Shown here: piece after piece, positions 1 through 62,100 of the stretch | How positions within the stretch are numbered: position 1 is the stretch's first letter | How the letters are laid out: every line of letters starts with the position of its first letter | From: an uncultured virus (IMG/VR IMGVR_UViG_3300048919_000076) | Taxonomy: Duplodnaviria; Heunggongvirae; Uroviricota; Caudoviricetes | Strand: one strand, 5' to 3' | Length of the DNA stretch: 64,000 bases | IMG/VR virus record: IMGVR_UViG_3300048919_000076 | Position numbers and translations under genes: made by a program | Notes under the pieces: model-generated | Database searches by the model: none | Seen by the model: only the letters and a program-made list of their open reading frames with translations | What the model was told of the DNA's origin: nothing

Positions 1-320
1 ATAATATTACTGTAGGGCAACAAGTGTTTGATGCTTTCTGGGAAGCAGCAGCACCTTTGAACAAACTGAAGAAACGTCTGTCTGAGTATTGGGAACGACA
101 GGGGGGTAAGAAATTCATTCTTGGTATCGACGGGCGTAAGGTTCCAACACGCTCTGCACATGCAATCTTAAACTCTTTGTTCCAGTCAGCAGGAGTCATA
201 TGCGCTAAAAGAGCAATGGTGATTCATGATCGTAAACTTAAGGCAGAGGGATTAGCAGTAGACTTTTTTAAAGACGATTGGAAGAATAAATCTTTCTGCC
301 AGCAAATGATTGCCTACCAT
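1..320 (+). CDS. Family A DNA polymerase, upstream exon (5' partial)
   Basis: Frame is open from the window start. Contains GIDGRK and LNSLFQSAGVICAK. Ends at ...MIAYH, the His of motif C (HDE). Confidence 0.93.
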
Positions 321-560
321 AAATAATTGTGGCCTTGCATTGTGAAGTGCATTGAATAACCTGTTGAATTCGGGGAAAGCTAAAGCGAGAGCCATGCCAA
401 TCCCGAGCGAAGCCTAAGAGTCTTTAGGAACGTGTAACGACTATCCCGTAAGGGAGTAGGATGCAAGCGCATTCGAAGCGGCAGGGGACTCTATGAGTCC
501 GTGATATAGTCTGATTCTCCGTGAAAGCGGAGTGAGTTTAGCGAACTCAATAACTGAATG
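321..560 (+). ncRNA. Group I self-splicing intron (240 nt, no ORF) in the DNA polymerase gene
   Basis: Upstream exon ends in U and the intron ends in G. P1 CCAU/GUGG has the U.G pair. P AAUUCGGGGAA 367-377, Q AAUCCCGAGC 399-408, P7 GACUA 439-443/UAGUC 507-511, P3 CCUGUU/GGCAGG. Splicing restores AYH-DEAQ in frame. Confidence 0.95.
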
Positions 561-2064: not shown

Positions 2065-2065
2065 T

Positions 2066-2290: not shown

Positions 2291-2303
2291 TTAAGGAGAT
2301 AAA

Positions 2304-2665: not shown

Positions 2666-3370
2666 ATGACTACGCAAGTAAGCACTTCTGTAATTGTAAA
2701 GCAACTCCCTAAGTCCGGTACTTTGGAAACCTTCAACGTATATGTGCTGAATGCCCCTGTGTTTTATGCTGCTGTACATAGCCCGAAAAGCAAGTACCAA
2801 TCGACAGACAAAGAGTTTAGTCTGACAGCGTTTGTGGATGAGGCAACTAAGGACAAGCTGTTGGATGAAGTAATGTTGAACAAAGGGTTTGCGCTCGTAG
2901 GCAAGGACAAGACTACCAAGCCACCACGCCGAATCAAATATCCTTTGTCTAAGGACGTTGAGGAAGGTAAGACCAACTACGATGTTGTAGAAGGTATGTA
3001 CGGTTTTGGTTTGGCTAAGCCTGAGTTCTCGAAAAAAGGCAACGCCATGAGCGTCAACGTTATCGACAAAGAAGGTCAAGCGTTTACTCAGGATATTGGT
3101 AATGGTTCTGTCTGCACTTTGAAACTGTTCGGTTATCGTAACCCTGAAGGTCAACTTACTGTTACTCTGGATACTGTTCAAGTGGTTGAGCATATTCCAT
3201 ATGAAAGTAAGGGTGGTGATGGTAATGTTGTGGACGATGTACTTGGCACTTATGCAGTGAAGAAAGTTGAGGCTAAAGTAGAGGAGAAAGAAGAAGCTCC
3301 AGCACCAAAGGCTAAAGCTGTGAAACAACCTGAGCCAGAAGATGACGAACTGAGTGACCTACCATTTTGA
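2666..3370 (+). CDS. Single-stranded DNA-binding protein (T7 gp2.5-like)
   Basis: IGNGS motif, acidic tail ending DDELSDLPF, replication-module context. Confidence 0.75.
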   Translation: MTTQVSTSVIVKQLPKSGTLETFNVYVLNAPVFYAAVHSPKSKYQSTDKEFSLTAFVDEATKDKLLDEVMLNKGFALVGKDKTTKPPRRIKYPLSKDVEEGKTNYDVVEGMYGFGLAKPEFSKKGNAMSVNVIDKEGQAFTQDIGNGSVCTLKLFGYRNPEGQLTVTLDTVQVVEHIPYESKGGDGNVVDDVLGTYAVKKVEAKVEEKEEAPAPKAKAVKQPEPEDDELSDLPF

Positions 3371-4368: not shown

Positions 4369-4420
4369 GTATTAAATAGGGAGTGTAAAAACTCCCGTTC
4401 TTTACAAGAGGAGAATTACA

Positions 4421-4716: not shown

Positions 4717-4725
4717 GAGGTTAGT

Positions 4726-6219: not shown

Positions 6220-6222
6220 ATT

Positions 6223-7061: not shown

Positions 7062-7249
7062 CTAACAAGAAATTGAAAGTAAACAGTGCTGCCTATACAG
7101 AACTTAGTATTCAAATTGCCGTACTTCAAGCATCTGTGGATAAACTACTCCAACTCGCTATGAAAGATAATACTTTAAATATTATTGGTGACGTAGTTAT
7201 CTCAGGAACTATCCCAACAGATGAAGAATTCTTGGAGGCATACAAATGA
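7058..7249 (+). CDS. Hypothetical protein
   Basis: Overlapping start, RBS. Confidence 0.65.
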   Translation: MTNKKLKVNSAAYTELSIQIAVLQASVDKLLQLAMKDNTLNIIGDVVISGTIPTDEEFLEAYK

Positions 7250-7346
7250 TTAAAGATTATTGGACAGCAATCTTCTGGTGCGAGTTTGTTCAGTTTAGCG
7301 TGTTCTTCAACATCTGGACACAACAACTTGGTGTTTAGCTTGAGAG

Positions 7347-7568
7347 GTGGGTATGTCAGTTATAGAGATGTTTCCGAAGAAAGAAGTTGCAGATAAATCA
7401 GTTGAGCATACTATCTCTAAGTTAGACTTCTGGATCGGGAGGAATGAGATTATAAGTAGGGACTTTGTAACTTCCAGTGTTTACCAGAAACAAGAGACGC
7501 TTGATACTGTACTCTCGATCAACAACCAATTGTATGAACTTATTTTGAAACTTAAAGGAGAGATTTAA
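7347..7568 (+). CDS. Hypothetical protein
   Basis: ORF within the operon. Confidence 0.6.
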   Translation: MGMSVIEMFPKKEVADKSVEHTISKLDFWIGRNEIISRDFVTSSVYQKQETLDTVLSINNQLYELILKLKGEI

Positions 7569-8351
7569 TTGAGCAATCGCCACCTATTTATTCCAGACGT
7601 ACAAGCAAAAGAAGGCGTTCCACTTCAACACCTTGAAGCTTTGGGAAATTACATCGTTAAGAAACAACCAGAAGTTATTGTAATGATTGGGGACTTCGCC
7701 GATATGCCAAGCCTAAGTTCTTATGATGTTGGTAAGAAATCTTTTGAAGGTCGCATGTACACAAAGGATATTGAATCTGCACGTAAGGCGATGGATGTTC
7801 TTCTTGCACCACTAAAAGCTTTTAATAGTCAGCAGTCACTTAACCGTAAAAAGCAATACAAACCACGAATGGTTATGTGCTGGGGTAATCACGATCAAGG
7901 CCGTATTGAGCGGGCTATTGAGAATGATCGTAAACTTGAAGGTTTGATTTCTGTTGATGATCTTGGTTTTAAAGAAGCTGGCTGGGAGTGCCATGATTTC
8001 CTTGAAATTGTAAATATCGACGGTATCCGTTACTCACACTACTTTGTTAATCCAAATAGCTTGCTGAAGAATTGTGTTGGTGGTAACATTGACGCGAAGC
8101 TGAAGAACTTGGGGTGGTCGTTTAGTATGGGCCATCAGCAGACTTTACAATACGGGGTCCAGTACTTGCCAGATGGTATTGCTCGCCAAGGTTTGGTTGC
8201 TGGTGCTTTCTACATGCATAACGAGAGCTACATGGGAACACAGGGTAATCTTTCTCACTGGCGTGGTGTTGTGATGAAGAATGAAGTTCAGGAAGGCAGG
8301 TACGATCCTTGCTTTATCTCTATTCCATTCTTGCTGGAGAAGTATATTTAA
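7569..8351 (+). CDS. Calcineurin-like metallophosphoesterase
   Basis: PDxQ, GDFAD, GNHD, SH and GHQQ motifs. Confidence 0.9.
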   Translation: MSNRHLFIPDVQAKEGVPLQHLEALGNYIVKKQPEVIVMIGDFADMPSLSSYDVGKKSFEGRMYTKDIESARKAMDVLLAPLKAFNSQQSLNRKKQYKPRMVMCWGNHDQGRIERAIENDRKLEGLISVDDLGFKEAGWECHDFLEIVNIDGIRYSHYFVNPNSLLKNCVGGNIDAKLKNLGWSFSMGHQQTLQYGVQYLPDGIARQGLVAGAFYMHNESYMGTQGNLSHWRGVVMKNEVQEGRYDPCFISIPFLLEKYI

Positions 8352-8487
8352 GTGGAAGACTACAAACTAAAGAACACTGTCAATCGCTTAGAGAATTCGG
8401 TTGACAGCTTAACTAAAGAGATCTATAATCTCAAACAGCAGCAGAAAGATATGCTGGAACAAATTAAGCGACTAAAGGAGGGGTTTA

Positions 8488-8925
8488 ATGATGGCAGTAG
8501 CAAATGAACCACAGAAGTTTAAAGTAAAGAATGATGTAACTGTCTACTCACTATTACCACCATTCATGGACACACACACTGTAGTTTGGAATGATGAGAA
8601 TGGACACCACCAAGAAACAGAGTGTAGTATTGGATATGTAAAGGATCAGTTCAGGAATGATATCTGGACTTACATCATTGAGAGTCCTAAATCATCTGTA
8701 GATAAGCCACAATCAGCTCTAGACAAACAAGTCAGCGGTAATCACTATAAAGACTTTAAGATCCAACCTGCTGAATATTGCCATGCTAACAACATCCCAT
8801 TCTTAGAGGGCAACGTAATAAAATACACATCTCGTCATCGGGCTAAGAACAAGAAGAAAGATCTTGAGAAAGCTATTCATTGTCTTGAGTTGCTGATTGA
8901 GTTGGAGTATGGTAATGAGGACTAA
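8488..8925 (+). CDS. DUF3310 / T7 gp1.7-like nucleotide kinase domain protein
   Basis: QVSGNHY...FLEGNVIKY..R...KN...DLEKA.H.L. Confidence 0.8.
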   Translation: MMAVANEPQKFKVKNDVTVYSLLPPFMDTHTVVWNDENGHHQETECSIGYVKDQFRNDIWTYIIESPKSSVDKPQSALDKQVSGNHYKDFKIQPAEYCHANNIPFLEGNVIKYTSRHRAKNKKKDLEKAIHCLELLIELEYGNED

Positions 8926-18936: not shown

Positions 18937-20376
18937 TTATGTAATGATGATGTTGACGCTTGACAGGGATGCTATCTGGTCAAAGTTTATAACTACGTTA
19001 CTAGTACCGACAGGACTTGGTGAAGTGCCAATCTTCAAAGATACAACTTCATGGCCGGGGATAGAATTTATTGGAGTATACAAACGGCTATAAATAACAT
19101 CATCACCTGTACCTAAGTTATCAGCGAAGTATTGAATCAAGGCACTCTGGATAGCTGCGTTACCATTAGCTGGGAAGTTGACATTAGTGGTGATGTCAAT
19201 ACTAATGTAGATAACAACAGGGGTTGGTCTAGAGAAGCTTACGTCGTGAGCGATGCCCTGTATATCGTTAATTGATACGGTAGTATTGCCATAACTCAAA
19301 ATACCAATTGGTTTGTTATCCCAAATAGCATTTGCAATATCTGTACTCAAACCACCAACAACGATTGGAAGAAAGCTGTGTGCAGGAACACCATTACCAT
19401 CTACAACACTTGTATCATTCTCATAAATAGTTACTTCACTAACATTATCTAAGTTGATGAGAGCGGAGTAGATAGCATCTAAAGTGTTAGTTGCACGATC
19501 AAACTTACCGTTACGAAAGCGTAAACGAAGCTGCTCATCCGTCTCACGATCTTCGCCGGGAGTTGCTGCAATTGGGTTGATTACACTGTCCCAACCAAGC
19601 ATCGGTGTGAGGATAGTGTCAACGGTGTTTGCAGGCTGTACGATAATGCCGGAATTAACAGCAACAACTTCACCAACTGTTCGTACTTTGTTAATACCAA
19701 GATTAACAGATGTTGTAAAGTTAACAGTCTGGAAGATATCTAAACGATCAATTACAAGCATTGTGCCAACAACTGAAGATACAAGACTAGGATGAGCACC
19801 AGCAATAACGCCTTGCAACCCAGCCAAGATTTCAGCTACAGTAGCACTTGCATCAGATGTAAATGTGATGGTGTTAGAGGTTGTTGTATTGGTATAAGTG
19901 ATGGTGTAAGCTGTGCTATTCTGTAAGGTGACTACGGAGACGGTGATACCGCTAGCGTTGCTGGGAGATAGAGAAATAGCACCAACTGTAGTGAATTGTT
20001 CACCAGTTGTAGAGCTACTTACTGTCTGTCCAACAGGGATAAGAGTGTTCGTATCCCCAGCTACCAGAATAGATGATGTGGTGAAAGTTTGTTCTTTACG
20101 TGTAATACCAGCGTATGCTACCAGATTATCTAGAGCAATCCCTGTTGCAGAGTTTGGGTCAAAGGCTGCGTATACTTCTTGAGCAGCTTCCCAAAGGTCA
20201 GCTTCACTTGGAGCAGCTAGGGAGATTAGGCGACCTAGTGCTGAAGAGTCTGAAACGTCGACCGTATCACCGGGAATCGTCAAATCTTGAAATAATTGAA
20301 CAGCCAAGGCCCTGTCATCAGCAAGGATATCAGCCAATCTTTTTATAATAAATCCCTGATCAGTAATACCTGCCAT
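18937..20376 (-). CDS. Baseplate J-like wedge protein
   Basis: ATG.ALD.L....GI.R; G.D.ETDEQLRLR. Confidence 0.9.
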   Translation of the reverse strand: MAGITDQGFIIKRLADILADDRALAVQLFQDLTIPGDTVDVSDSSALGRLISLAAPSEADLWEAAQEVYAAFDPNSATGIALDNLVAYAGITRKEQTFTTSSILVAGDTNTLIPVGQTVSSSTTGEQFTTVGAISLSPSNASGITVSVVTLQNSTAYTITYTNTTTSNTITFTSDASATVAEILAGLQGVIAGAHPSLVSSVVGTMLVIDRLDIFQTVNFTTSVNLGINKVRTVGEVVAVNSGIIVQPANTVDTILTPMLGWDSVINPIAATPGEDRETDEQLRLRFRNGKFDRATNTLDAIYSALINLDNVSEVTIYENDTSVVDGNGVPAHSFLPIVVGGLSTDIANAIWDNKPIGILSYGNTTVSINDIQGIAHDVSFSRPTPVVIYISIDITTNVNFPANGNAAIQSALIQYFADNLGTGDDVIYSRLYTPINSIPGHEVVSLKIGTSPSPVGTSNVVINFDQIASLSSVNIIIT

Positions 20377-21313
20377 TAGCTAGATCCTTATACTGGTTTG
20401 TTTGAAAATCTACTAGTTCCCCCAAATCTGTAATAGATATGGTTTCAGTAAATCCGCTGGGAAGTTCCCATTGTGAAAAATATGAACCGAATGTTTTCCT
20501 AATCAACCTTTCATGTAGCTGGGCATCGAGACCTGTTGAATAATCCCAAGAGTAAGCTAATTCAAAATTAATATCTAATGGACGACAGTCTCTTTTGTGT
20601 TCGTAAAGACGTCTTTCAATATCACAAGTAATCCCGTACTTATAACCTTGTAAGATATTATCTTCAGAAATCACTCGTAGAATATATAGCTTTGCTGGTA
20701 ACGAAGGGTTGAAGCCTGAAAAGGCACAGTGAGGACAGGCACAGTTTCTCCTAATACTGCCTATTTTAGTTATCCAATCCTTACCACAAAAATCGCAATT
20801 AAGACTAAACTCTATTTCTCTGACCCTTTTCTCGATCTTGTAATCTACAAAGTTAACTGTAAAATTATTCTTCTGACCTTTTTCAGAAACCTTATTAAAA
20901 AGATCTTCTTTAGATGGACGAGTGTTGTTTGCACAAACCCTACAACCTTTTTGACTAAAAGCAACGCCACTGTAAGTACCTTCCCAGTGGAAGTCACAAG
21001 TATTACATTTTAGTTTTATAGGGTCGTGGGACTTACCAATAACTTCGTCTAATAGGGTAATACCAAGTTTATTAAGAATCGGCAACATTCTTTCAATTTT
21101 TCTCTCAGAGTTCGTGCCAAACTTACCACTACAAATACAAGGCTTCCGGCCTGATAAAATTGAAGCTGCTGTTACAGTGGAAACCAGAGAACAGATAATA
21201 CATTTAACGGTAAACCTTGATCGTTGATTTTTGCCAAACTCTAGAACTTCGTAATTAGCCCCATTTTGGGAGTAAATACTATCTTTATAATATTCTGATA
21301 AAAGCATATTCAA
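20360..21313 (-). CDS. Putative homing endonuclease (zinc-ribbon repeats plus GIY-YIG-like C-terminal domain)
   Basis: Repeated CxxC...CxxC; GFNPSLPAKLYIL...YKYGIT.DIERR; G.TE; inserted among baseplate genes. Confidence 0.75.
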   Translation of the reverse strand: MNMLLSEYYKDSIYSQNGANYEVLEFGKNQRSRFTVKCIICSLVSTVTAASILSGRKPCICSGKFGTNSERKIERMLPILNKLGITLLDEVIGKSHDPIKLKCNTCDFHWEGTYSGVAFSQKGCRVCANNTRPSKEDLFNKVSEKGQKNNFTVNFVDYKIEKRVREIEFSLNCDFCGKDWITKIGSIRRNCACPHCAFSGFNPSLPAKLYILRVISEDNILQGYKYGITCDIERRLYEHKRDCRPLDINFELAYSWDYSTGLDAQLHERLIRKTFGSYFSQWELPSGFTETISITDLGELVDFQTNQYKDLANGRYY

Positions 21314-37933: not shown

Positions 37934-39271
37934 TTAAAAGCTGAATTCATTGGATTTTGTCATGCTGGGCATTGAGAACATCGGAACGTTTAACTTCTGG
38001 GCAAGTGTAATAAATGCATCAGATGAGGCGTCCACTTGGTCATCCTTTACATTACGACTACCATCAAAAGCCTCTAGTTCAAAAAAGTAAGCTTCGTTCC
38101 AAGGGCCTTCAACATATGAAACAAGACCAGCTTCGGATGCTGCTGCGAAAGGTTGGAAACGAACCACTTTAGACTTGTTAGTTGGTCGCATTCTTGCAGC
38201 AAAACCTTCTTCAAGTAGCTCTTTAATCATCATCTTACCGGCTGCAATTCCGGCTTGACCGGGCTCTTGAGGCAATATAATCTGAGTGTTATCAGGATCA
38301 GACTGAGCAGTCTTGATGATGGTTTTCATAACTTCACCATACCGAGCCATAAATGTGATTACGTCTTCGATGATGTACTGTCCTTGTTTTGTCTTTGCAA
38401 TCAAGACTCCACAAGTTTTGTCTGGGCGGGGGTTTGCATCTGATGGCACCGAGCCTGCGATATCCCATGCCCTGCATCGTGACACAATTTCTTGCTCAAA
38501 CATTTTTACCGGGATCACCCAGTCACGCTTGAAAAAACCACTCCCAGAATCGCGTACAAACCAATTCCCAAAAAGCAACCTAGCTTTTTCAGTCCCTTTG
38601 AGACCTTTAAGCCAAGAGACGTATTTTGGGTTAACTTTTTTTACGATTGGATTGTCATCTACGTTAGCACTAATAAAAGTAAACGACAGAGCGTCTTCTT
38701 CTGCTATTCCGTGGTTCTCAACAAGAGCTTCAATTGAATCACCCCAAACAAAGTCACCATCTTGGAAGGAGAAGTATCTTACAATACCGTCTCTGCTTCG
38801 ATCTGGAGTTCCATCTTCATGCAAGTAAGGCTCAACCCACTTCCTCAAGAAATGGTCTGCGTCAGGATTGCAGGTAATCTTTAGATGAGGCTTTACTTCA
38901 GGGCAAGATGGGTTACGCATACGAGACATGATGTATTGAATCATGTGTTGTGTGAACTGCGTACCTTCATCTACATAGAAAAGATTTGCCTCGGCACCTT
39001 GCCATGAGACATCACTTTGATCATTTTCAAAGTGTTTTAAATAGATTTCAGCTCCACTTTTATGGAACAAAAACTTACCGTCCTTAGCTCTCCAAGTGTA
39101 TTCATCTGGCTTATATGCTTGAGAGAAAATACGCTTACACTTAGTTAGAAGTCCACCGGGACCGGTGAGCTGTGGAGTATTCCGTCTGGTCATTACCCCA
39201 ATAAAATTAGGAATATCGGTGTACTTAAGAAAATCAATTACACCGATTTCAGATTTACCAGAACCTGCTGC
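37934..39271 (-). CDS. terL: Terminase large subunit, exon 2
   Basis: Starts at AAGSGKS (Walker A). Walker B FYVDE, TCNP, RAWDIA and KDDQVDA (nuclease). Confidence 0.93.
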   Translation of the reverse strand, partial: AAGSGKSEIGVIDFLKYTDIPNFIGVMTRRNTPQLTGPGGLLTKCKRIFSQAYKPDEYTWRAKDGKFLFHKSGAEIYLKHFENDQSDVSWQGAEANLFYVDEGTQFTQHMIQYIMSRMRNPSCPEVKPHLKITCNPDADHFLRKWVEPYLHEDGTPDRSRDGIVRYFSFQDGDFVWGDSIEALVENHGIAEEDALSFTFISANVDDNPIVKKVNPKYVSWLKGLKGTEKARLLFGNWFVRDSGSGFFKRDWVIPVKMFEQEIVSRCRAWDIAGSVPSDANPRPDKTCGVLIAKTKQGQYIIEDVITFMARYGEVMKTIIKTAQSDPDNTQIILPQEPGQAGIAAGKMMIKELLEEGFAARMRPTNKSKVVRFQPFAAASEAGLVSYVEGPWNEAYFFELEAFDGSRNVKDDQVDASSDAFITLAQKLNVPMFSMPSMTKSNEFSF

Positions 39272-39511: not shown

Positions 39512-39613
39512 ACCACCATATAGCGTCACGTCCGTCTGGGCGGCAACATACATGTGTTGCCGCTGACTCACGGGACCGGGTAAAGGAGTTTCTTTACTCT
39601 TTTGTCCAGCCAT
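39512..39613 (-). CDS. terL: Terminase large subunit, exon 1 (34 aa, not in ORF track)
   Basis: MAGQKSKETPLPGPVSQRQHMYVAAQTDVTLYGG; the spliced product is 479 aa. Confidence 0.88.
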
Positions 39614-40511
39614 AATATTTGATTTCACCTTCTGTTCTAGCTTGGCAAGCCGCTTCAAAGGAAACATTATAGGCTAGAATAATTCTCTCTTTATAGTGGG
39701 AGATTATTGCTTGCCAACTGCCATTTGCTAATTGGAAGACACCAACTCTACCTGAAGTATTATTTGTGCCCATTCTTCGATTATAAGCTTGTACTGTTAA
39801 GTCTGCCCAACGACAATTTTCCTTGAAATAACCAAGGTCAGGGTCTATTCGATCTAAAGTCATTCCTTCGGGACGTTCGCCCATGTCAGCATAGAAAGCT
39901 TCAAAAGAATCAATCCACTCCTGACAAACACCAATACCACGGTCTTGATAATAATCTTTTTCAGCATAAGACTCTAAGTAACAACGCTCTTTCATTTTCT
40001 GCCAAGAGCGATGAGTTGGAGTGCCATGCATACCGTGTTTAGTTTGCAGTTCAGAGATTTTCTCAGATTTCCAGCATCCACAGGATGAGTAATCTTGCAA
40101 GTTAGAACGTCTTGTAGAGTGTTCAGTTCCACACTCACACAGGCAATTCCAAACAGAAACTTGTTGATCATCTGAAAGCCTGTTCCACTCTTTAAACCCT
40201 AAGACTGTAAGGCGCCCAAACTTTTCACCAACAAGTTTCTCTGGAATCCATTCACCAGACTTAACCTTCTCACGGTGTTTGACGAATATCTGTCTTTTCT
40301 CACACCCGCAAGAGGTTGTATGTCCTTCCTGTTTTAAGTTAGAACCTGTTGCAACAAATTGTTGTCCACAAGCACACTGACACAACCACTTAGACTTTCT
40401 TTGCCCACTTGGTTGATAATGCCAACTATCAAAAGATAAGACTTCAACTTTACCAGTCTTAAATCCCGTATAGTCTACGAACCCTTTCGGGAATTTTATT
40501 TCTTCATTCAT
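39594..40511 (-). CDS. Free-standing HNH homing endonuclease
   Basis: Two W.C.C.CG...SCGC repeats; DMGERPEGMTLDRID....Y.KENCRWA; AP2-like tail. Confidence 0.9.
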   Translation of the reverse strand: MNEEIKFPKGFVDYTGFKTGKVEVLSFDSWHYQPSGQRKSKWLCQCACGQQFVATGSNLKQEGHTTSCGCEKRQIFVKHREKVKSGEWIPEKLVGEKFGRLTVLGFKEWNRLSDDQQVSVWNCLCECGTEHSTRRSNLQDYSSCGCWKSEKISELQTKHGMHGTPTHRSWQKMKERCYLESYAEKDYYQDRGIGVCQEWIDSFEAFYADMGERPEGMTLDRIDPDLGYFKENCRWADLTVQAYNRRMGTNNTSGRVGVFQLANGSWQAIISHYKERIILAYNVSFEAACQARTEGEIKYYGWTKE

Positions 40512-40657: not shown

Positions 40658-41041
40658 TTAAGCGTTAGCTTCGATAAACTGTCGTGTGATAAGCTGGCGG
40701 TCGCGACCTGAGATATTCTTTGTTTTACACAAGGCTCTCAATAGATCCCAGTCCATATTATCCAATGCCTCTTTAGTCCACTCTTCCCGAACAATCACAA
40801 CCTCAACACTAGGCTCTGACTTAAGAAACTCTTCAGTCTCAATATTCATTACACATGCATGAGGATAGTCATTAAAGAATCGCTCTTTCTTGTCCAAAAC
40901 ACCACCCTTCCCAGAGTATTTGATGATGTTGTCAATAAAGTTATGACCGTAATAGTCTTGGCTTGTAATCAAAAGTTTGTACTTATTCAAAATTCTTCTC
41001 TCCGTTGTTTCTTTCTTTGATGGGAGAAGTGTATCAAACAT
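40658..41041 (-). CDS. Hypothetical protein
   Basis: ORF in the late region. Confidence 0.7.
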   Translation of the reverse strand: MFDTLLPSKKETTERRILNKYKLLITSQDYYGHNFIDNIIKYSGKGGVLDKKERFFNDYPHACVMNIETEEFLKSEPSVEVVIVREEWTKEALDNMDWDLLRALCKTKNISGRDRQLITRQFIEANA

Positions 41042-47300: not shown

Positions 47301-47414
47301 ATTGTCCCTACTGAATGATTGTGATAAATCACATATTGTTTTAATTGAATTTTCTAAATCATTCTGGCAAGACTACTTGCAATAATATCAATGGATAACA
47401 AAATGATTAAGAAA

Positions 47415-47521
47415 ATATTCTCTTAAGCGAGGAGAGAGACACTTAAGAGAATATGAAAGACAAGCTGATAGGAGAGGATCAGTTATCTTTAAGATCCGGC
47501 ATAGAGGAGGAGAGACGCCGG
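47415..47521. ncRNA. Candidate small RNA with three hairpins sharing AGGAGAG(+)/CUCUCCU(-) loops
   Basis: Stems at 47415-47454, 47456-47490 and 47496-47521, each with the same loop motif. Confidence 0.6.
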
Positions 47522-47567
47522 GAGGAACACACCTTTCTAGAATTTGACCTTCGTGGTGTGGTGAAAC

Positions 47568-47651
47568 TGGTGCGGAACGTAAGACTCGAACTTACACGTC
47601 TTTCGACAGCAGTTTCTAAGACTGCCATGGCTACCATTACATCAGTTCCGC
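47568..47651 (-). tRNA. tRNA-Leu(TAG)
   Basis: GCGGAAC/GTTCCGC acceptor stem, encoded CCA, anticodon arm GCAGT-CTTAGAA-ACTGC, long variable arm, TTCGA. Confidence 0.95.
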
Positions 47652-47655
47652 AAAT

Positions 47656-47731
47656 TGGTCTAAGCGGCAGGGATCGAACCTGCGAGTACTCGGTTCCAAA
47701 CCGAGACGATTACCACTTTCGCTACGCTTAG
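47656..47731 (-). tRNA. tRNA-Pro(TGG)
   Basis: CTAAGCG/CGCTTAG acceptor stem, encoded CCA, anticodon arm CTCGG-TTTGGAA-CCGAG, GTTCGA. Confidence 0.95.
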
Positions 47732-47789: not shown

Positions 47790-47838
47790 TACGCGACCTA
47801 ATAAGGTTTCGACTTATTACAAAGTCTCATCAGGCGTA
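47790..47838 (-). ncRNA. Type I hammerhead ribozyme
   Basis: UACGC CUGAUGA GACUU-uguaau-AAGUC GAAA CCU-uauu-AGG UC^GCGUA; full core, all three stems and a GUC triplet. Confidence 0.9.
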
Positions 47839-48296: not shown

Positions 48297-48473
48297 TTAT
48301 TCGTATTTAGGTAAAATAGTCTTATAAACACTGAAATCAGGGTCTGTTAGTGATTCAAACTGATATTCCATCCGAAACACTTCAATACTATCTTCCAAAT
48401 ATTCTACTTCAATATCACATACACAATAATTATTAATACGCCCACATTGTGAGCAAAAGCAAATCTCGCCCAT
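48297..48473 (-). CDS. 58-aa Cys-containing protein (not in ORF track)
   Basis: GGAG RBS; MGEICFCSQCGR...; TTGACA upstream near 48539. Confidence 0.6.
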   Translation of the reverse strand: MGEICFCSQCGRINNYCVCDIEVEYLEDSIEVFRMEYQFESLTDPDFSVYKTILPKYE

Positions 48474-48558: not shown

Positions 48559-48846
48559 TTAAAAATGTTCTCCGTAGTTATCATTCACCAACAAATCCTC
48601 TACAGAATACCAATTCTTACATTCCAACCTACTGCCACGAGCTTCGTTAATTTTCTTAGTTGTAGGCCAAGAATTATATTTGTAGAAATACTGAATCCAT
48701 ACACAAGATTCAGTAAGCTTGATTTTGTTGATGCTCAGTTTTAAATCATAAGGGATTAAGTCTGTAAATTCCTCTTCAGTCTTGAAAGATTTTAGAAGGT
48801 CTATGCGTCCAGAGTATCCGGGATAGCTTTTCCACCAATCACTCAT
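48559..48846 (-). CDS. Hypothetical protein
   Basis: ATGA coupling to the upstream gene. Confidence 0.7.
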   Translation of the reverse strand: MSDWWKSYPGYSGRIDLLKSFKTEEEFTDLIPYDLKLSINKIKLTESCVWIQYFYKYNSWPTTKKINEARGSRLECKNWYSVEDLLVNDNYGEHF

Positions 48847-50201
48847 TTCTTATCCACCTTACAGAATGTAGTATCACCCAATACTGTTTCCCAAGCTGAG
48901 AACATAGCCTCTCTCAAGTCATCTTCAACAGAAGCTTTAACTAGGCAACTGTCGTGATAAGCCAATACTGTGTGTCCCTTAGCCCCCATTGCCCCAACAA
49001 TACGCATCATGATCTTACTATCAATGTTTTGAAGAACAATACCAGCATCAGAGAAGAAACGATCTTTAATAAAATCATTATGTGTTTGCACAGCCTCAAG
49101 AACAGCACAATAATCTGTCTCACCAATCAAAGCGTAGAAATCCTGATCTTCAACAGCCTTGGAACGATCTTGTTTAACCTTGTTACCAAGTGTCCATGCT
49201 GCACTATTCTTGTCGTTAGAGTTCATACCAATCAAGATAGCTAACTTAGCTAATTGACGGACAGGGTTGTGTTTCTTACCCGTCTTCTTTTCCCACTCAT
49301 CTTTCAATCGACCATCAACCTTCAGGAATGACAAGTCTGCATCATATGGAGAAAAGTCTTTACCCATCACGTCATAAATATTAAATCCGTTTGTTTTGTA
49401 CATCAACTGATAGCAGATAGATGGGTGGATTGCAGAGTAGTCCAGTTCCACACATGACTCGCCATCAATCATTAGAGATGATGCCCGCACATGCTGAGGG
49501 AGTAATTGCACACCACCACCTAATGTGTACAGCCGACCTCCACTATCCATATCCCCACTAAAGATGCGACGATAGGACACATCAGCAATAGGAACGCCAT
49601 CAAATGTAATCGAACTGCCTTGCAGAGTGTCATTCATATCTCGTACCTCATTTTTAATTTCTTTAAAACCTTTATGTCCACGAGTAGGCATTTGTTCTTT
49701 AGTCTCCCGATCACGAATGATAGCTAAATCATTATCTTCTAATTCTTTCCAAAGATTGTAGGACGTATTAACATTCTCCCACATCTCTTTTGTACGCTTC
49801 CTGAAGATCATACAAGAAGCAATTGCTTCATCAGGGACAAGCTTTCCTTTCTCCATCTTCCAAGACTTAACGTATCCTTTATAAAGGTCAATATACCCTT
49901 TCTCCTCCAAGAAATCAACAAGAGATTTAACCTTTCTGTAGTTGATACCTTGTTTTGTCTTGCTATATGCATTCCTATCCAAGCTAAAGACAAATCCATT
50001 AGCTTTCTTCTTGATTGCACGAGCAGAGTTAGACACCCACCATCTAACTGCATCTTCCCATTTGTATTTAGTATGCTCCATCACATCATCTACTATCTTC
50101 TTGTAGTATTTAGATTCATGGTAATAGATATAGCTTCTTACACACTGTAGGTTAACAGCATAGACATCATACTCTGTCATATTACTTAATTCATAGATCA
50201 A
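48843..50201 (-). CDS. Pol I-fold polymerase-like protein (single-subunit RNA polymerase-like motifs)
   Basis: GGRLY; ELDYSAIHP (motif A); RQLAK (motif B); LQNIDS; YHDS (motif C). Confidence 0.6.
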   Translation of the reverse strand: MIYELSNMTEYDVYAVNLQCVRSYIYYHESKYYKKIVDDVMEHTKYKWEDAVRWWVSNSARAIKKKANGFVFSLDRNAYSKTKQGINYRKVKSLVDFLEEKGYIDLYKGYVKSWKMEKGKLVPDEAIASCMIFRKRTKEMWENVNTSYNLWKELEDNDLAIIRDRETKEQMPTRGHKGFKEIKNEVRDMNDTLQGSSITFDGVPIADVSYRRIFSGDMDSGGRLYTLGGGVQLLPQHVRASSLMIDGESCVELDYSAIHPSICYQLMYKTNGFNIYDVMGKDFSPYDADLSFLKVDGRLKDEWEKKTGKKHNPVRQLAKLAILIGMNSNDKNSAAWTLGNKVKQDRSKAVEDQDFYALIGETDYCAVLEAVQTHNDFIKDRFFSDAGIVLQNIDSKIMMRIVGAMGAKGHTVLAYHDSCLVKASVEDDLREAMFSAWETVLGDTTFCKVDKK

Positions 50202-50461
50202 TCACTTATTCTCCTTATGATTGGTTAGTAAGAGTAGAGATAGTAGTAGTATTAATAGATAGATGTATTGTAGTACACTAAATGCTCTACAGGCCACGGT
50301 TTATAGGGGTTTGTCCTCATTCTACTCGGTACTTTCTCTGTTTTGCTCTCAATTCATTCCACTAAGACTACACCCTCCCAAGCTCAATGTCAACCCTCAC
50401 ACCAAAAATAATCCCCACTCCAAATCAGCCTAACCACAGCTAAATTCTTTTAGCAATCCGC

Positions 50462-50490
50462 TTGCTTTCCACAACAAGACGTGCGAGAAT
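50462..50490 (+). promoter_or_regulatory. Sigma70-like promoter for the rightward arm
   Basis: TTGCTT-17 nt-GAGAAT, sharing ACGTG..AGAATGGT with the promoter at 1527. Confidence 0.55.
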
Positions 50491-50520
50491 GGTTGCATCA
50501 CTTAGAGAAGGAGATTTACA

Positions 50521-54645: not shown

Positions 54646-55464
54646 ATGGAAGTCGATTCAACAAGATGGGAGATTATAAAAGAATGGAAAGAGGGTAGAC
54701 GCCACTACCTAGAAGTTAAGTGTAATATTTGTAATACACACTTTGATAGATCACGAAAAGAGCAAATCTTTGGAAAGGTTCTTAGGCAGTGTGAATGCGA
54801 TAAAACTGTGCGTGGAAAGCCATTTGAAATAGGTGAGCGGATTGGTAAACTGATAGTTCTGGAAAGAGATAACAGTATTACGGATAATAAACATGTTTGG
54901 TGGAAGGTAAAGTGTGATTGTGGAGAAGTTAAATCCTTACAAGGTAGTCAGTTGAGGAACGGTACAACTTCAACATGCGGATGTTTGCTTTCTGACAAAC
55001 GTGGAGGTAAAAGAGAAAAGCATGGCAGGACTAAAACAAAAGAGTATAAAATTTGGACTAGTATGTGTGGTAGAGTAACAAGACCAGACGAAAGTACCCG
55101 TAAATGGTATTTTGACAAGGGTATTGGTGTTTCTTCTGAGTGGAGAGCTGGTTTTACACACTTCTATGAGGATATGGGAGACTGTCCAGAGGGGTACTCT
55201 TTAGACAGAATTGACCCATCAGGTGATTACTGTAAAGAAAACTGCCGCTGGGCTTCTCTTGAACTTCAATCTATTAACAAAGGATTGTTTTGCAATAACA
55301 CAAGTGGTAAGACAGGTGTTTCCTTGAATCAACACGGAAAATATATGGCTTACATTTACAACAAGGGCGAGAGAATCCATCTAGGGAGTCATGCAACTTA
55401 TGAATCAGCAGTCAAAGCACGCCTTGAAGCCGAAGAAAAATATTGGGGAGACATTAATGAGTGA
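54646..55464 (+). CDS. HNH homing endonuclease with AP2-like domain
   Basis: W..KCDCG...CGC; DMG.CPEGYSLDRID...Y.KENCRWA; paralogous to 39594-40511. Confidence 0.88.
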   Translation: MEVDSTRWEIIKEWKEGRRHYLEVKCNICNTHFDRSRKEQIFGKVLRQCECDKTVRGKPFEIGERIGKLIVLERDNSITDNKHVWWKVKCDCGEVKSLQGSQLRNGTTSTCGCLLSDKRGGKREKHGRTKTKEYKIWTSMCGRVTRPDESTRKWYFDKGIGVSSEWRAGFTHFYEDMGDCPEGYSLDRIDPSGDYCKENCRWASLELQSINKGLFCNNTSGKTGVSLNQHGKYMAYIYNKGERIHLGSHATYESAVKARLEAEEKYWGDINE

Positions 55465-58453: not shown

Positions 58454-59050
58454 AGTAAGTGCTTGGAAAGACGAAGACATTGTAGATACTCGCAAACTCC
58501 AAATCTTTAGCTTGTGTCAAGTAATGGCAGCTTTCCATTATGAACTTGTAGAGTACAAAGGCCACGCTTCACGATTTGAAAGTACCCACCGCTCAAATAA
58601 AGGTCGTAATGTAATTAGCTGGTCTAAGGCCATTTCGCTCTATAACGGTGATTCTGTAAAATGTGTATTTGGTCGTCCTCCTAATCGTTTGACATTGTGG
58701 AGTTTTACCGACTACCAAGTAACACAAGCCAAGGCTGCAAGGATAGTTAAACAGCTCAAATTGCAGTTCTGTCGTCAAACCAAACAGGTGATTGTACAAG
58801 ATCATCGTGTTGAATTTATTACCCCTTCGTATAAAGCTCTATTCCTCGGGAATAAGTATCTATGAACAGATCGATTATCTATGTCTGGTCATCAGGATTT
58901 TGGATATTTGGAGTAGATTATCATCACGGTACACATTCAGCTTTAGGTAAGTATCAAGAAGTTATTCTTGGCGAAGGATGGCATAGACAGGAGATTACTT
59001 TGATGGTGAATGACTTCATTGAAGAGAATCTATTGCTGTGGGAAGATTGA
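58443..59050 (+). other. Two hypothetical ORFs (58443-58865, 58862-59050)
   Basis: RBS and coupled starts. Confidence 0.7.
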
Positions 59051-59061
59051 TAGAAATTTAT

Positions 59062-59096
59062 AAGCTCTGAGGCTCTTGTCTCGGGGCTTTTCTTTT
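59062..59096 (+). terminator. Rho-independent terminator
   Basis: AAGCTCTGAGGC/GTCTCGGGGCTT stem followed by TTCTTTT. Confidence 0.75.
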
Positions 59097-59131
59097 GTTA
59101 AAATTATCTTATAAATTAACTAGGAGGCTAC

Positions 59132-62100
59132 ATGATCTACATAACAGAAATGCTGCGTTGGGGTGATGATGAATCCCACCATTATATCATTGGAGCATAC
59201 TCAACCAATGAAGAAGCCTCTTACGCAGGAGAAGTTGAGAAGACTTGGAGAGGTGGTAAGTATGAGTACAGGGTTGTGGTTGTAGAAATGGATAAACCAC
59301 TGGACAGTGATCAAATAGAACATCATGAGGGGATTTATTAAGATGGATAAACAGAAACTAACAAGGCAACTAGAAATGCTTCACCGTGACTTGTCTAGTG
59401 CAGATAAACGAGCTAAAAAGATTTCCAAAGAATGTGGATTGCCTGATAATGAATTGATAGAATTCGCTATGGAGCAGACTAAATTAGTTCTTGAGTATAT
59501 TGAAAGCTTGAAAGGGGAGAAAGACAATGAGTGATTTAATTAAGCTGGTAAAAGCAGAACAAACTAACGTTCGTAAACCCTTTATCGGGCCTTTGGATAC
59601 CTTATTAAAGGTAGACTCTGAATTCAGTCCCTTGGGTGGCAGGGTTGCTACACAATACAAGATTGGAGTGACTCTTGAGTGTCATGTAATGATTCAAGAA
59701 GGTCCACATATGAGTCAGTATGCTGAAAAAGCCTTAGTTGATACAAGGCGTTCTATTGCACAAGCCGTATTTGGAGAATTTCGTGAAGATTTGAATAAGA
59801 TCAAGCACTTAGCTTATAATTTTGACTCAGATGGTGTTATTGATGCTATACGAACTCTAGAAAACAAAATGTTTGAGGTGTAGGTAATGAGTAAGAAAGG
59901 AAATCCTGATTTTAAACCAATGACAGACCAGCAAAGGGAGGAAGCACACCTAAAACGTCTAGCTGACCAAGAATATGCTGTAAATCACCTGATAATTGAG
60001 TACAAAGATGCCGATTATTGGCGTTCATTAGCCTCAGAACAGGGGCTGAAGATGCCTAATTGGTGGATAAAGGGGGTAGAAGCTAAGTATATTCGGAGGG
60101 CTTGTAAGAAACTTGGAATTGATGTCGCTGAATATGTTGAGTCCACTGGCTTTAAAAACCTTAAAGAATTCACTGAAAACAATGAAAAATGGACAGCTTT
60201 TGCCCATGTAGGGTTGGTTTTAGAGTTTTATAAAGAGAATACAGCTCAGAAAGGTTGTTAGAATCAATTGAAAGTGGTAAAGTTAAGGTAGTTTTTGATG
60301 TATTCAGCTCGATTAACATTAACAGAGCCCGGTAGTGGCTCTTAGGAGAAACAGATGCTTATCCTATTGTATTTTATCGTTGTAATTGTTGTTTCATACA
60401 TCCATGCACACGGATGCTACGTCAAGGGAACTAAATATCCGTGGAAAGAGGATGCGATCCTATGCTTTCTTTGGCCCATCACATTGCCTATAGGTATTTG
60501 GATGATTATTGCATCGGAGAGTAGACCATGACACTAGCTGAACATGAAGATCGTCTTGTTAAAGACGAAGAATACCGTAGTAAATGGATTGATGAAGAAG
60601 TTCGCAGTTCTTCTGAGTGGTTTGTGCAGCAACTCAGCACTAAACAGAAGGATACACAAACAGTAACTTAGTGTGGAGAGTGAAATGACTGCGAATCGTC
60701 AGCTTGCAGAACAACGGGGTTTATCTGAACACCAAATTCAAGAGATTGATCGTCTGCACGAACATCTTGACAAAACAATGGACTACTTTATTGAACAAGG
60801 TTGGACACAAGGACGGGAAGATGAAATTCATGATATCGAATACCTCTTGCAACAAGCTTGGGGTTTTCCTAAAGACTGTGGATACCATCGTTATGCACAC
60901 CAATATGCTTTTGTCTGCCAGTGGTATGGGCGTACATTCAAGTGTGTAGAAACTGGGAATAAGATTACACTAGGTAAAGATATTCAAGAACGTCAATACA
61001 TTTCTTTTGGTAATTGTGCAATTGACTTGGGTGTGTTAAACGGTTATTCTCGTCGTATCGGAAACATGGAGGAGATTAAATGATAACAGATAAACAGAGG
61101 TTCGAAGAGTTTACTAGAAATGAAAAAGAATTTGAGAGTCAAGGCTGGGTAGTACATCACATTTGTGGGTGTGGGTACGTTCCTACGCACTCAGAGAACA
61201 GTGTGCTTATGAGGTTTGACTTTCCTTGGTGCCCTAAATGTGAAATGAGAGACTACCGAAAGAAGTATCGTCGTTGGATTTCTCAATCTATTTGGTATAA
61301 ACCACAGACATGGTTTCGCGGTTACTATGAGTGGGAACAACAATGACCACACAATATTCACCCGAGAAACAATTGATCAAAGATTTCATCCGCTGGGCTA
61401 GTGATATGCATAAGTGTGCGATTGTGGCATTCCCAGATGAATTTGCTGCGAGTCAGTATGTGAATTACAAATTTGTCAATACATGTGAATTATTGGATGA
61501 ATTTATGAAGGAGAGAAGTAGTGGGATTTAAAATAGATTTTATAGTTGAGGGTGGTGATCTTATTGATGACCATTGCAATCCCGCAATCTATACACAAGA
61601 TATTAAGGTAGGTGGTAACTCATGCTCTGATACGGTGTTCCTACAACAAGACGGACAAGTAGTGGGGTTTACTACAAGACAGTTTGAAGAGTTTATTCGT
61701 GAGGTTATGAAGTCATCCTTGTTTTGTGATTTGAGGAATGAGCTGAGGGAGGAATAATGAACCAAACAATTGAAGAAAGAATGCAATCCATTGAAGACCA
61801 ACTCAAAGAGCTTCAGAAAGAACTGGAAGAATCTCTTGCGCGCTACAACAAAAACCAGTATCCTTTTACAAATGGTGATATTAGTAAGTTCCGTAGTGGA
61901 GCTATTGGGGATATTCCTGAGACTAAATGTCTGTGGGATAGCATTCCTATAGAAGATCGTATGAAGCCTATGGGGCTAAGTTGTCCTTGTAGGAAGTGTT
62001 CGGCTTGGTGTTGAGGAGAGAAATAAATGATTGTACTAAACGACTTGTGTGGTTGTGAGGATGACACTGTAATTGAAGTTGAATACTTGAAACAGTATCT

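Follow-up and report, generated by a model that had tools for sequence, protein, structure and literature searches.

T7 RNA polymerase and mitochondrial RNA polymerase act as origin primers, and the T7 replisome needs the phage RNA polymerase at its primary origin. RNA polymerases of the T7 type carry glycine at the steric gate and tyrosine in motif B (G542 and Y639 in T7), and motif C of the T7 enzyme is HDS. PolA enzymes also have tyrosine at this motif B site.

Smaller family A-type polymerases have been described in two groups. TV-Pol, reported by Iyer, Abhiman and Aravind (2008, Biol Direct 3:39, PMC2579912), belongs to elements that are linked to integrases and mobile elements, and a primase-polymerase role was predicted for it. 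TV-Pol has a minimal family A core with RxxxK as its fingers signature, a thumb of two antiparallel helices and an optional N-terminal helical domain, and a D5-type helicase can be fused to it or encoded nearby. One member, CcPol-MP of SCCmec, has been proven to be a primase that uses dNTPs (Bebel et al. 2020, eLife 9:e55478, PMC7581432). No other relative of this type is known to have been characterized biochemically. CcPol-MP is a family A-type primase-polymerase of a mobile element, acting beside a dedicated helicase. It keeps the sugar-discriminating Glu and Phe residues and requires an adjacent small OB-fold partner, MP (PMC7581432), and it has a partial exonuclease domain (Rice 2023, PMC10061031).

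The second group, divPolA2, was named by Yutin, Tolstoy, Mutz, Wolf, Krupovic and Koonin (2024, Virol J 21:200, PMC11348598), with Rheinheimera barbaviruses as its founders. We found the term in the literature only in this paper and its preprint. Members are ~430-450 aa long, with an intact palm and an N-terminal globular domain, and without an exonuclease or a regular thumb; they are encoded alongside a regular DNA polymerase, which is PolB in the barbaviruses. For the N-terminal domain, the authors reported no similarity (PMC11348598).

A divPolA2-family gene at a divergent strand switch

We analyzed a 64-kb stretch of viral DNA, here called the window. The product of the gene at 48843..50201 belongs to divPolA2, in a branch allied to TV-Pol, as judged from sequence comparisons; the family was already described in 2008 and 2024. 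The ORF map agrees with the preliminary description that this is the first gene of the leftward arm, and it adjoins the divergent intergenic region (Table 1). Both the TTG start and the N-terminus MIYEL are conserved in alignments of relatives.

Table 1. Features of the locus. Fractions of 270 count the sequences in an alignment built on the family profile; because these sequences were chosen by similarity, their conservation is partly by construction.
Feature	Position	Strand	Basis
divPolA2-family gene (TTG start; 452 aa and stop codon)	48843..50201	-	ORF list, phrog_4756, family profile
Minimal family-A-type polymerase core (thumb stub, palm, fingers), residues ~152-452	48846..49748	-	Predicted model
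N-terminal globular domain, winged-helix-like, with long beta-hairpin wing, residues 29-153	49743..50117	-	Predicted model
DSGGRLY (D219-Y225), beta-hairpin with invariant Arg223	49527..49547	-	G222 269/270, R223 270/270, Y225 260/270
Motif A, ELDYSAIH (E252-H259), catalytic Asp254	49425..49448	-	D254 270/270, H259 259/270
Motif B / O-helix RxxxK, RQLAKLAILIGMN (R315-N327)	49221..49259	-	R315 266/270, K319 270/270, N327 256/270
QNIDS (Q391-S395), conserved helix element before motif C	49017..49031	-	Q391 250/270, D394 259/270, S395 243/270
Motif C, YHDS (Y415-S418), catalytic Asp417	48948..48959	-	H416 268/270, D417 269/270, S418 247/270
Shine-Dalgarno AAGGAG	50211..50216	-	9 nt before TTG start; conserved in alignment of upstream regions
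Divergent intergenic region, leftward arm versus rightward early-type genes	50202..50520	.	ORF map
Conserved leader core, genome-unique	50253..50338	-	Alignment of 11 upstream regions
Weak -10-like TAGTCT	50370-50365	-	17 nt downstream of TTGACA box
Invariant TTGACA box	50388..50393	-	GTTGAC in 11/11 upstream regions
C-terminal fragment of regular family A DNA polymerase	3..326	+	tblastn with PolA of related genome G002; truncated at window edge
Gp2.5-like single-strand DNA-binding protein, acidic tail ending DLPF	2666..3370	+	phrog_112, E 1e-6

The protein matches phrog_4756 over its full length (1.6e-83) and the divPolA2 exemplar AUR84708 in BLASTP (E 8e-11). A family profile (hmmsearch) recovers AUR84708 at 5.5e-39 over residues 20-428 (2.0e-36 in a whole-record search), ICP1 ADX89516 at 2.3e-61 and Aeromonas 2L372X_127 at 3.6e-120, and tblastn gives matches in 115 Rheinheimera barbavirus records. 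The gene is present two or three times in some phage genomes; no second paralogue was found in the window or in a related complete genome, G002. Among 1.84 billion proteins, the profile detects 10,650 representative clusters at E<=0.001, including 4,572 at E<=1e-30. No Pfam or NCBIfam model covers this very large family. Every name returned by a cluster look-up for the protein is "hypothetical", and an ESM Atlas search produced unnamed clusters only.

The resemblance to TV-Pol lies in the minimal family A core, the hairpin Arg (R223), the two palm Asp residues (D254 and D417) and the RxxxK fingers helix. Ma-LMM01, a Microcystis phage whose genome PMC2579912 names, has an ORF that shares the RxY..GGGxQ..R..D....H signature; this match is marginal (E 0.0023 per genome, over 60 profile positions), and the ORF may differ from the one in the paper. 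Foldseek also matches the replication protein of Zamilon virophage (E 1.5e-4). A D5-type helicase, whether fused or neighboring, was not found in the window, nor was an integrase, resolvase or transposase.

A minimal polymerase core with a separate N-terminal domain

The predicted model is confident and has a fold of the PolA/single-subunit RNA polymerase type. Structure comparison yields Z scores of 13.2 for apPol, 12.7 for Bst, 12.7 for human POLRMT and 12.5 for T7 RNA polymerase, and the best 50 Foldseek matches are DNA polymerases only. The Pol I fold anticipated in the preliminary description was recovered by both approaches, but the structure does not tell an RNA polymerase from a DNA polymerase here. 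Alignments with polymerase structures begin near residue 152 and cover ~250 residues. Because only ~250 residues align, the specificity loop, the intercalating hairpin and the N-terminal domain of RNA polymerases cannot be present.

According to the model, the product contains no exonuclease and apparently no full thumb. The thumb region comprises ~45 residues between the N-terminal domain and the Arg hairpin, with a single 15-residue helix (179-193) in place of the two antiparallel helices of TV-Pol. Residues 1-150 fold apart from the core, and their structural matches are mostly winged helices, without exonucleases. These matches suggest, weakly, a winged-helix-like domain of the DNA-binding type. 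The domain differs from the partial exonuclease domain of CcPol, from the N-terminal domain of T7 RNA polymerase and from the divPolA2 description, in which no similarity is given.

Catalytic motifs

The motifs DSGGRLY, ELDYSA, RQLAK, LQNIDS and YHDS are present in the translation in the order first reported for this gene, and as a set of sequence motifs they are far above chance. In a 66-sequence alignment, the columns G222, R223, R239, E252, D254, Y286, K319, H416 and D417 are invariant. When the family profile is compared with PDB sequences, the DSGGRLY hairpin aligns with TGRLSS of Taq Pol I, and LDYSxxH of motif A aligns with LDYSQIE, which puts His259 at the steric-gate position; the match to Taq as a whole is not significant (E 0.23). 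The LQNIDS stretch had been included in motif C. By position, and from the known PolA motifs, we assign QNIDS to the Q-helix, ahead of motif C, which would then consist of YHDS alone. With the catalytic set conserved and the predicted fold confident, the enzyme is probably active.

Sugar-discriminating residues of the well-studied enzymes are replaced. The Glu steric gate and the Phe or Tyr of motif B that characterize PF00476 were not found; His259, Leu323 and Asn327 stand in their places. Likewise, the Gly gate and motif-B Tyr of T7-type RNA polymerases are absent, with His259 in 259 of 270 and Asn327 in 256 of 270 sequences at positions assigned from the Taq alignment and motif spacing. The divPolA2 exemplar AUR84708 has Glu at the gate, in contrast to the His found here and in most relatives, and CcPol differs by its Glu and Phe at the positions of His259 and Leu323. 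A Pfam search with the protein returned 0 families at E<=10, with neither RNA_pol (PF00940) nor DNA_pol_A (PF00476) among them, and 2 of the 66 relatives reach E 0.042 with RNA_pol.

A single-copy leader element

The leader core contains an invariant 16-mer (50322-50337) and a conserved 19-mer (50287-50305). Both are single-copy in the window, and there is one exact copy per contig in 12 IMG/VR viral contigs, several of which are complete genomes of 83-92 kb. In 11 of these 12 contigs, the gene starts 118-158 nt downstream of the element. Identity in the core is 71-98%, versus 52-79% at third codon positions, and the core is better conserved than the coding sequence in nine of 10 loci. The element is absent from the distant members 2L372X, ICP1 and Vibrio 1.063.O. 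Neither a single-copy leader element nor the strand-switch position is part of the section on novel PolAs in PMC11348598.

A multi-copy promoter motif for a phage RNA polymerase was considered and rejected, since neither the 16-mer nor the 19-mer occurs more than once in the window or in any of the 12 contigs. A sigma-70 scan lists no site within 50202-50520 (8 sites in total, compared with a shuffle mean of 10.9), and the TTGACA box is missing from this list because its -10 is poor. Conservation of an RNA fold in the leader is not supported (consensus -1.98 kcal/mol, 0 of 10 pairs covarying). Rfam gives no match in 50202-50520, with two tRNAs and sub-threshold matches elsewhere. Iterons, AT-rich repeats and long repeats were not found in this region. 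Alternatively, the leader element could simply serve an early gene as promoter or operator, or control its translation.

Genomic context and possible links to replication

The preliminary description held that the phage has a separate replicative PolA. Window positions 3-326 match residues 551-625 of the 704-aa PolA of G002 (tblastn, 38.7% identity, E 3e-12), and PolA frames of 704-813 codons are present in two of three related complete genomes, with no match in the third. This fragment and these frames support the claim. As in other divPolA2 phages, then, the gene accompanies a regular DNA polymerase; the lineage combines PolA with a T7-type replisome, in contrast to the PolB of barbaviruses. 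G002 encodes such a replisome, including a gp4-type primase-helicase, without a PF00940 RNA polymerase; PF00940 gave no match in three related genomes, and none in control genomes either. In the Gp2.5-like single-strand DNA-binding protein, the terminal P233 and F234 are invariant in a 29-sequence alignment.

The gene with its leader is one of only four patches of nucleotide similarity between the window and G002. In seven of seven phage records, a divergent strand switch precedes the gene start by 0-2.0 kb. This statistic is rough, given that crude ORF calling places 13-44% of a genome no more than 2 kb downstream of such a switch. In Barba18A, the divergent unit with the divPolA2 gene continues to primase and DNA polymerase.

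The homolog in ICP1_2006_E, ORF100, is located at 58,951-60,618. Early theta replication of ICP1 shows a read peak "near the 60 kb position" (PMC7145576), with coordinates that might be off by a few kb because the data are in 1 kb bins and come from an engineered phage without CRISPR and cas2-3. The window has a local minimum of cumulative GC skew at ~50 kb. However, in G002 the global minimum falls at ~81 kb, where the arm of replication genes begins, and not at the divPolA2 gene (24.6 kb); therefore, GC skew was not counted as support for an origin.

Bacterial relatives were found at 12 loci, four of which lack annotation. Of the eight annotated loci, three have a tyrosine integrase within 6 kb and one has a phage tail sheath gene. 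At the integrase-linked loci, the divPolA2 gene is the only replication-type gene within 6 kb. Adjacent to the gene in the window is a translationally coupled 95-aa ORF (48559-48846), which has a homolog in none of 12 related loci. Thus, no conserved SSB or OB-fold partner was found downstream, unlike the arrangement of CcPol with MP.

Proposed role in site-specific initiation

Our best reading, with a probability of about 0.5, is that the protein is an accessory enzyme that initiates nucleic-acid chains at a single fixed position beside its own gene, probably in replication. Its fold, conserved catalytic set and family membership are the established part of this reading, at the level of sequence and predicted structure. 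The N-terminal domain would anchor the enzyme at one DNA site, most likely the single-copy leader element at the divergent strand switch. There, the low-processivity core would lay a short starting chain, and the T7-type replisome (PolA, gp4-like primase-helicase and Gp2.5-like SSB) would take it over. On this reading, the divPolA2 enzyme would be the origin-priming counterpart of T7 RNA polymerase in T7.

The N-terminal domain, the single-copy leader element, the strand-switch position, the location of the ICP1 homolog and the integrase-linked bacterial relatives all lean towards site-specific initiation. We count against it the lack of iterons, the GC skew of G002, the lack of the leader element in distant members and the lack of an SSB partner. 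Origin priming was one option in the preliminary description; as a provisional reading, it fits the evidence better than transcription does. We lean to DNA over RNA as the product (about 55:35) because of the bulky His at the steric gate. Since the lineage already has a gp4-type primase-helicase, the need for a second primase is not evident.

A wider proposal, which we regard as tentative and somewhat doubtful, is that divPolA2 is a third kind of replication initiator beside DnaA/Rep-type binders and DnaG/AEP primases. Its winged-helix head would read a unique element, here the one in the gene's leader, and its thumbless core would lay the first chain. Thousands of phage and integrative-element lineages would use it, and it would supply origin priming to T7-type replisomes that lack T7 RNA polymerase.

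The protein might instead be a minimal DNA-dependent RNA polymerase that transcribes genes of the phage or one particular non-coding RNA, with the N-terminal domain replacing the promoter-recognition modules of T7-type enzymes. The palm-and-fingers fold of the model, the HDS of motif C and the T7-type replisome are indeed shared with T7 and its polymerase, and POLRMT and T7 RNA polymerase score well in structure comparison. The Glu gate of DNA polymerases is missing, and Asn327 could contact a 2'-OH. Yet the scores of DNA polymerases differ from those of these enzymes by no more than 1-2 Z units, a bulky His stands where T7-type RNA polymerases carry Gly, and the protein is half the size of T7 RNA polymerase or less. 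The RNA polymerase modules are missing, Pfam RNA_pol has no match, and no repeated promoter-like motif was found in the window or the 12 contigs. Support for the original proposal of an RNA polymerase is partial. We consider transcription unlikely, although Yutin et al. raised the possibility (PMC11348598). The single-copy element, His259 and the Pfam result argue against the more specific suggestion of a late-gene transcriptase.

Two further explanations appear distinctly improbable. If the enzyme were an extra DNA polymerase that acts in repair, fills gaps or bypasses lesions and takes no part in initiation, its family A fold, intact active site and presence besides a regular replicative polymerase would be accounted for, and repair is among the options of Yutin et al. 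(PMC11348598). However, this would leave unexplained the DNA-binding-type domain, the unique conserved leader element, the regular occurrence of the gene at the start of an early divergent unit in seven of seven phage records and the integrase-linked relatives, and no repair genes are consistently adjacent in the window and the phage records compared. The gene and leader could also form a semi-autonomous selfish module, either a self-priming mini-replicon or a homing-type cassette, that moves between phages; we give this just as small a chance. Gene and leader share 86.7-92.5% nucleotide identity with relatives while their flanks are unalignable, and TV-Pol relatives define mobile elements (PMC2579912). 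The integrases beside bacterial relatives, the huge family and the multiple copies in some phages are also consistent with such a module. Nevertheless, in the window the gene is not bordered by an integrase, a transposase or terminal repeats, and the high conservation may simply come from purifying selection that maintains an essential function. Moreover, the gene is first at a major divergent switch in both the window and G002, and this shared position points to vertical inheritance under strong constraint.

Significance and occurrence

If initiation at a fixed site is the true function, it would explain how origins fire in phages that have T7-type replisomes and no phage RNA polymerase, and it would add a polymerase-fold primase or initiator to the known kinds. 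The window itself adds modestly, as one more family member; the leader element and the recurrent strand-switch position are concrete, testable sites.

Among the sequencing runs listed for this DNA, the three RNA-type rows contain less than one-tenth of its words. At least part of the 64-kb stretch is present in 23 of 24 listed rows, which are root, rhizosphere and soil metagenomes.

Gene identity and family membership

The gene is an ORF of 452 codons that begins with TTG and has AAGGAG 9 nt upstream; the TTG start and the N-terminus MIYEL are kept in alignments of its relatives. The ORF proposed in the preliminary description is real, and its translation contains all the motifs listed there, in the same order (DSGGRLY, ELDYSA, RQLAK, LQNIDS, and YHDS). 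Two other statements made there also hold: the gene is the first of the leftward arm, and the phage has a separate PolA, a fragment of which opens the window. The gene faces a 319-bp divergent intergenic region. Annotation identifies a myophage (tail sheath, baseplate, tape measure, portal, major head protein, and terminase) that also encodes ribonucleotide reductase, thymidylate synthase, dCMP deaminase, PhoH, a Gp2.5-like SSB, an exonuclease, and many HNH endonucleases.

The protein matches no Pfam or NCBIfam family, and 25 longer or more distant family members likewise lack a Pfam family. In PHROGs, it matches phrog_4756 (function unknown) over its full length (1.6e-83). By tblastn, 241 phage records match, each with <60% identity (115 Rheinheimera, 99 Vibrio including ICP1, 14 Aeromonas, and others); among the matches listed, annotation is hypothetical or absent throughout. 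Word-indexed search yielded 108 relatives, and a profile built from 66 of them, searched against 1.84 billion proteins, matched 10,650 representative clusters at E ≤0.001, 8,274 at ≤1e-10, and 4,572 at ≤1e-30.

AUR84708, the exemplar of the divPolA2 branch of family A polymerases (Yutin et al. 2024, PMC11348598), matches the protein by BLASTP (E 8e-11) and the profile over its whole length (5.5e-39). The profile also matches the homologs of ICP1 (2.3e-61) and Aeromonas phage 2L372X (3.6e-120), and fails to match a related phage's true PolA (E 0.053 with a search space of one sequence). These matches make the gene a further member of divPolA2, an already known family. In our literature searches, no source other than the Yutin paper and its preprint used that term, and Rice 2023 was the sole related biochemistry published since 2023.

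Invariant columns in the 66-sequence alignment are G222, R223, R239, E252, D254, Y286, K319, H416, and D417. We also aligned to the profile the query and 269 other family members between 300 and 700 aa in length, excluding 7 of 276 outside this range. R223, D254, and K319 occur in 270/270 each, D417 in 269, H416 in 268, R315 in 266, H259 in 259, and N327 in 256, counts that are partly by construction because the sequences were selected by similarity. The conserved pattern nevertheless reproduces exactly the catalytic residues of family A polymerases.

Fold and active site

An AlphaFold2 model of the protein has a mean pLDDT of 93.1 and a pTM of 0.86. Foldseek gave 155 PDB matches at E ≤0.001, and family A DNA polymerases make up the whole of the best 50 (Aquifex Pol I at 2.3e-6, apicoplast Pol, T7 DNAP, Bst, Klenow, and Pol theta among them). 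When VIA-align was run on the 998 best Foldseek chains, RNA and DNA polymerases tied, each aligning ~235-260 residues within model range ~152-452. The structure supports the polymerase fold originally proposed and does not tell RNAP from DNAP.

VIA-align matches to the model
Chain	Protein	Score (Z units)	Second value	Residues
8q63_A	Yeast mitochondrial RNAP	14.2	4.1	253
9qsc_A	Apicoplast Pol	13.2	4.7	246
7a8p	Human POLRMT	12.7	3.8	251
4dsj_A	Bst Pol I	12.7	4.2	243
8dh4_M	T7 RNAP	12.5	5.5	249
1tk8_A	T7 DNAP	12.2	3.8	235

The best BFVD matches are full-length phage homologs (2L372X, TM 0.84), then viral PolAs; the Zamilon virophage replication protein is also matched (E 1.5e-4). Because a single 15-residue helix (179-193) separates the N-domain from the Arg hairpin in the model, a full thumb is unlikely to be present. 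The N-domain is tentatively assigned as winged-helix-like. Taq Pol I tops a PDB-sequence profile search at a nonsignificant E of 0.23, with GRLY...R...LDYSxxH aligned onto TGRLSS...IRRAF...LDYSQIE, which would place His259 at the steric-gate Glu position. At the gate and motif B, DNAPs have Glu and Tyr, and RNAPs have Gly and Tyr. His259 and Asn327 match neither pattern, and sequence cannot tell sugar specificity; AUR84708 has Glu at the gate. A polymerase fold and probable polymerase activity are well supported by sequence and model.

A conserved leader element

When the sequence upstream of the gene was aligned across the window and 10 related loci, an invariant GTTGAC(A) box appeared, followed by a near-invariant block of ~86 nt inside the leader. 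This core is 71-98% identical to that of the window; third codon positions reach 52-79%, and sequence farther upstream reaches 50-76%. Core identity exceeds whole-CDS identity in 9/10 loci. The 16-mer and 19-mer within the element each occur once in the 64-kb window. Exactly one copy of the 16-mer is present in each of 12 IMG/VR contigs, and divPolA2 starts 118-158 nt downstream in 11 of them; the twelfth ends before any start could show. Because consensus folding found no conserved RNA structure and Rfam gave no match, the element has the look of a site recognized by its sequence, either in DNA or in linear RNA. The 2L372X, ICP1, and Vibrio 1.063.O genes have no such element upstream, and on this comparison it is lineage-specific.

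Strong strand asymmetry flanks the leader. On the gene's strand, G and T predominate and C is scarce in the region upstream of the TTGACA box, and ~60 nt before the Shine-Dalgarno sequence have almost no G and many CTA repeats.

Position in phage genomes

In all seven phage records examined, a divergent strand switch lies 0-2.0 kb upstream of the gene's start: the window (0 kb), Barba18A (0.3), vB_AdhM_DL (0.8), KLEP7 (0.9), ICP1_2006_E (1.3), 2L372X (2.0), and Vibrio 1.063.O (2.0). Two of these, vB_AdhM_DL and 2L372X, are Aeromonas phages of one genus. When ORFs are called crudely, the 2-kb stretches downstream of divergent switches cover 13-44% of such a genome, so the recurrence is suggestive, not decisive. 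In Barba18A, the unit that holds the gene continues to a primase and DNA polymerase 3 kb downstream.

The ICP1_2006_E homolog, ICP12006E_102 (ORF100; profile E 6.4e-61), occupies 58,951-60,618, and early theta-replication reads of ICP1 peak "near the 60 kb position." The reads are in 1-kb bins from a phage without CRISPR and cas2-3, both upstream of the homolog; therefore, peak coordinates may be off by a few kb.

Replication genes of the lineage

G002, a related complete genome of 90,095 bp, has a divPolA2 95% identical to that of the window, likewise first at the major switch. Its nucleotide similarity to the window is confined to four patches, one being the gene with its leader. Its annotated replication region encodes a 704-aa PolA, a T7 gp4-like primase-helicase (phrog_239, 2.5e-147), an exonuclease, and nucleotide-metabolism enzymes. 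PF00940 RNAP matched none of three related genomes in a search that matched no control genome either. The lineage therefore appears to lack a T7-type RNAP despite its T7-type replisome. In T7, the primary origin is primed by the phage RNAP.

The window's PolA fragment matches residues 551-625 of a relative's PolA, and its frame stops at ...MIAYHK, where motif C (HDE in family A polymerases) is expected. An HNH endonuclease ORF lies 0.5 kb downstream, and the gene looks interrupted by an inserted intron or homing endonuclease. HD[EQS] was found in no plus-strand frame of window 1-3000, so no downstream exon could be placed. The 419-aa large terminase ORF matches profile positions 200-619 only, of 642, with an HNH endonuclease gene directly upstream; it may be split in the same way. 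Several of the six HNH or related endonuclease genes in the 64 kb lie inside or beside essential gene clusters. The Gp2.5-like SSB has an acidic C-terminal tail with an invariant Pro-Phe end (DLPF; 29/29 aligned sequences), recalling the T7 gp2.5 tail, which docks on polymerase and helicase.

TV-Pol and cellular relatives

Iyer et al. 2008 (PMC2579912) described TV-Pol as a minimal family A core of transposons and viruses. It is marked by an Arg in a hairpin, two Asp in the palm, and an RxxxK helix in the fingers, and a helical domain at the N-terminus or a D5 helicase may be attached. TV-Pol is linked to integrases and resolvases and was predicted to prime and polymerize. One member, CcPol of SCCmec, is described in later reports as a dNTP-using primase once bound to the small SSB-like MP (PMC7581432; PMC10061031). 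In contrast, the adjacent downstream 95-aa ORF here has a homolog in 0/12 related loci, and thus no MP-like partner gene adjoins ours. In Microcystis phage Ma-LMM01, whose genome Iyer et al. named, one ORF is matched by the family profile (E 0.0023) and shares the RxY..GGGxQ..R..D....H signature. The tie to TV-Pol proper is weaker than divPolA2 membership.

A one-genome-per-species scan with closer alignment produced 12 cellular loci, of which eight were annotated; L040, whose copy shares 48% identity and lies on a 60-kb contig, and three short contigs were left out. A tyrosine integrase lies within 6 kb in three of the eight (L044, both sides; L046, directly upstream; L050), L041 has a phage tail sheath, and four have nothing telling nearby. 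These loci seem to match the TV-Pol picture of small integrative elements with divPolA2 as the sole replication-type gene. In L044 (Humidesulfovibrio MAG, 4055-8613), a 479-aa divPolA2-like gene lies between tyrosine integrase genes, next to a Cas9-type cas1-cas2 locus. In L051, a Woesearchaeota archaeon MAG contig, a distant 443-aa divPolA2-like ORF (5311-6642; 23% identity over residues 219-450, E 6e-6) has a ribosomal protein S7 gene on one side and an EF-G/EF-2 gene on the other.

Possible function

The most likely job, to which we assign a probability of about 50%, is initiation of synthesis at the leader: the enzyme would begin synthesis site-specifically at the unique element beside its gene, and this would probably serve the start of replication. 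Against this reading, no origin-type repeats were found in the gene's intergenic region; the global minimum of cumulative GC skew in G002 falls at 81 kb, where the replication-gene arm begins, and not at divPolA2; the lineage already has a gp4-type primase; and the N-domain assignment is weak. The leader may also be a mere control site of an early gene.

A dedicated mini-RNAP would fit the structural tie, but His259 and Asn327 are unlike the Gly and Tyr of RNAPs, and we consider this role unlikely. A repair polymerase is more doubtful still, and it seems equally improbable that the gene with its leader is a selfish mobile module.

Other features of the window

The second gene downstream of the polymerase is a 58-aa ORF that shows a CxxC...CxC pattern and is kept in 5/10 close related loci. 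Two sub-threshold Rfam matches, Hammerhead_HH9 (23.4 bits versus a gathering threshold of 52; E 0.014) and ar14, adjoin tRNA-Leu(TAG) and tRNA-Pro(TGG), and a perfect 13-nt inverted repeat is also present.

Coordinates of features in the window
Feature	Position	Strand
PolA fragment	3-326	+
HNH endonuclease	836-1492	+
Gp2.5-like SSB	2666-3370	+
Other HNH or related endonucleases	3691-4368, 6531-7061, 20360-21313, 39594-40511, 54646-55464	
Large terminase and upstream HNH region	37934-39193, 39594-40511, 40658-41041	-
ar14 match	47413-47527	-
Inverted repeat	47415-47454	
tRNA-Leu and tRNA-Pro	47568-47731	
Hammerhead_HH9 match	47790-47838	-
58-aa ORF	48297-48473	-
divPolA2 gene	48843-50201	-
G-poor, CTA-repeat stretch	50220-50290	-
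Leader core	50253-50338	-
G/T-rich, C-poor stretch	50394-50450	-
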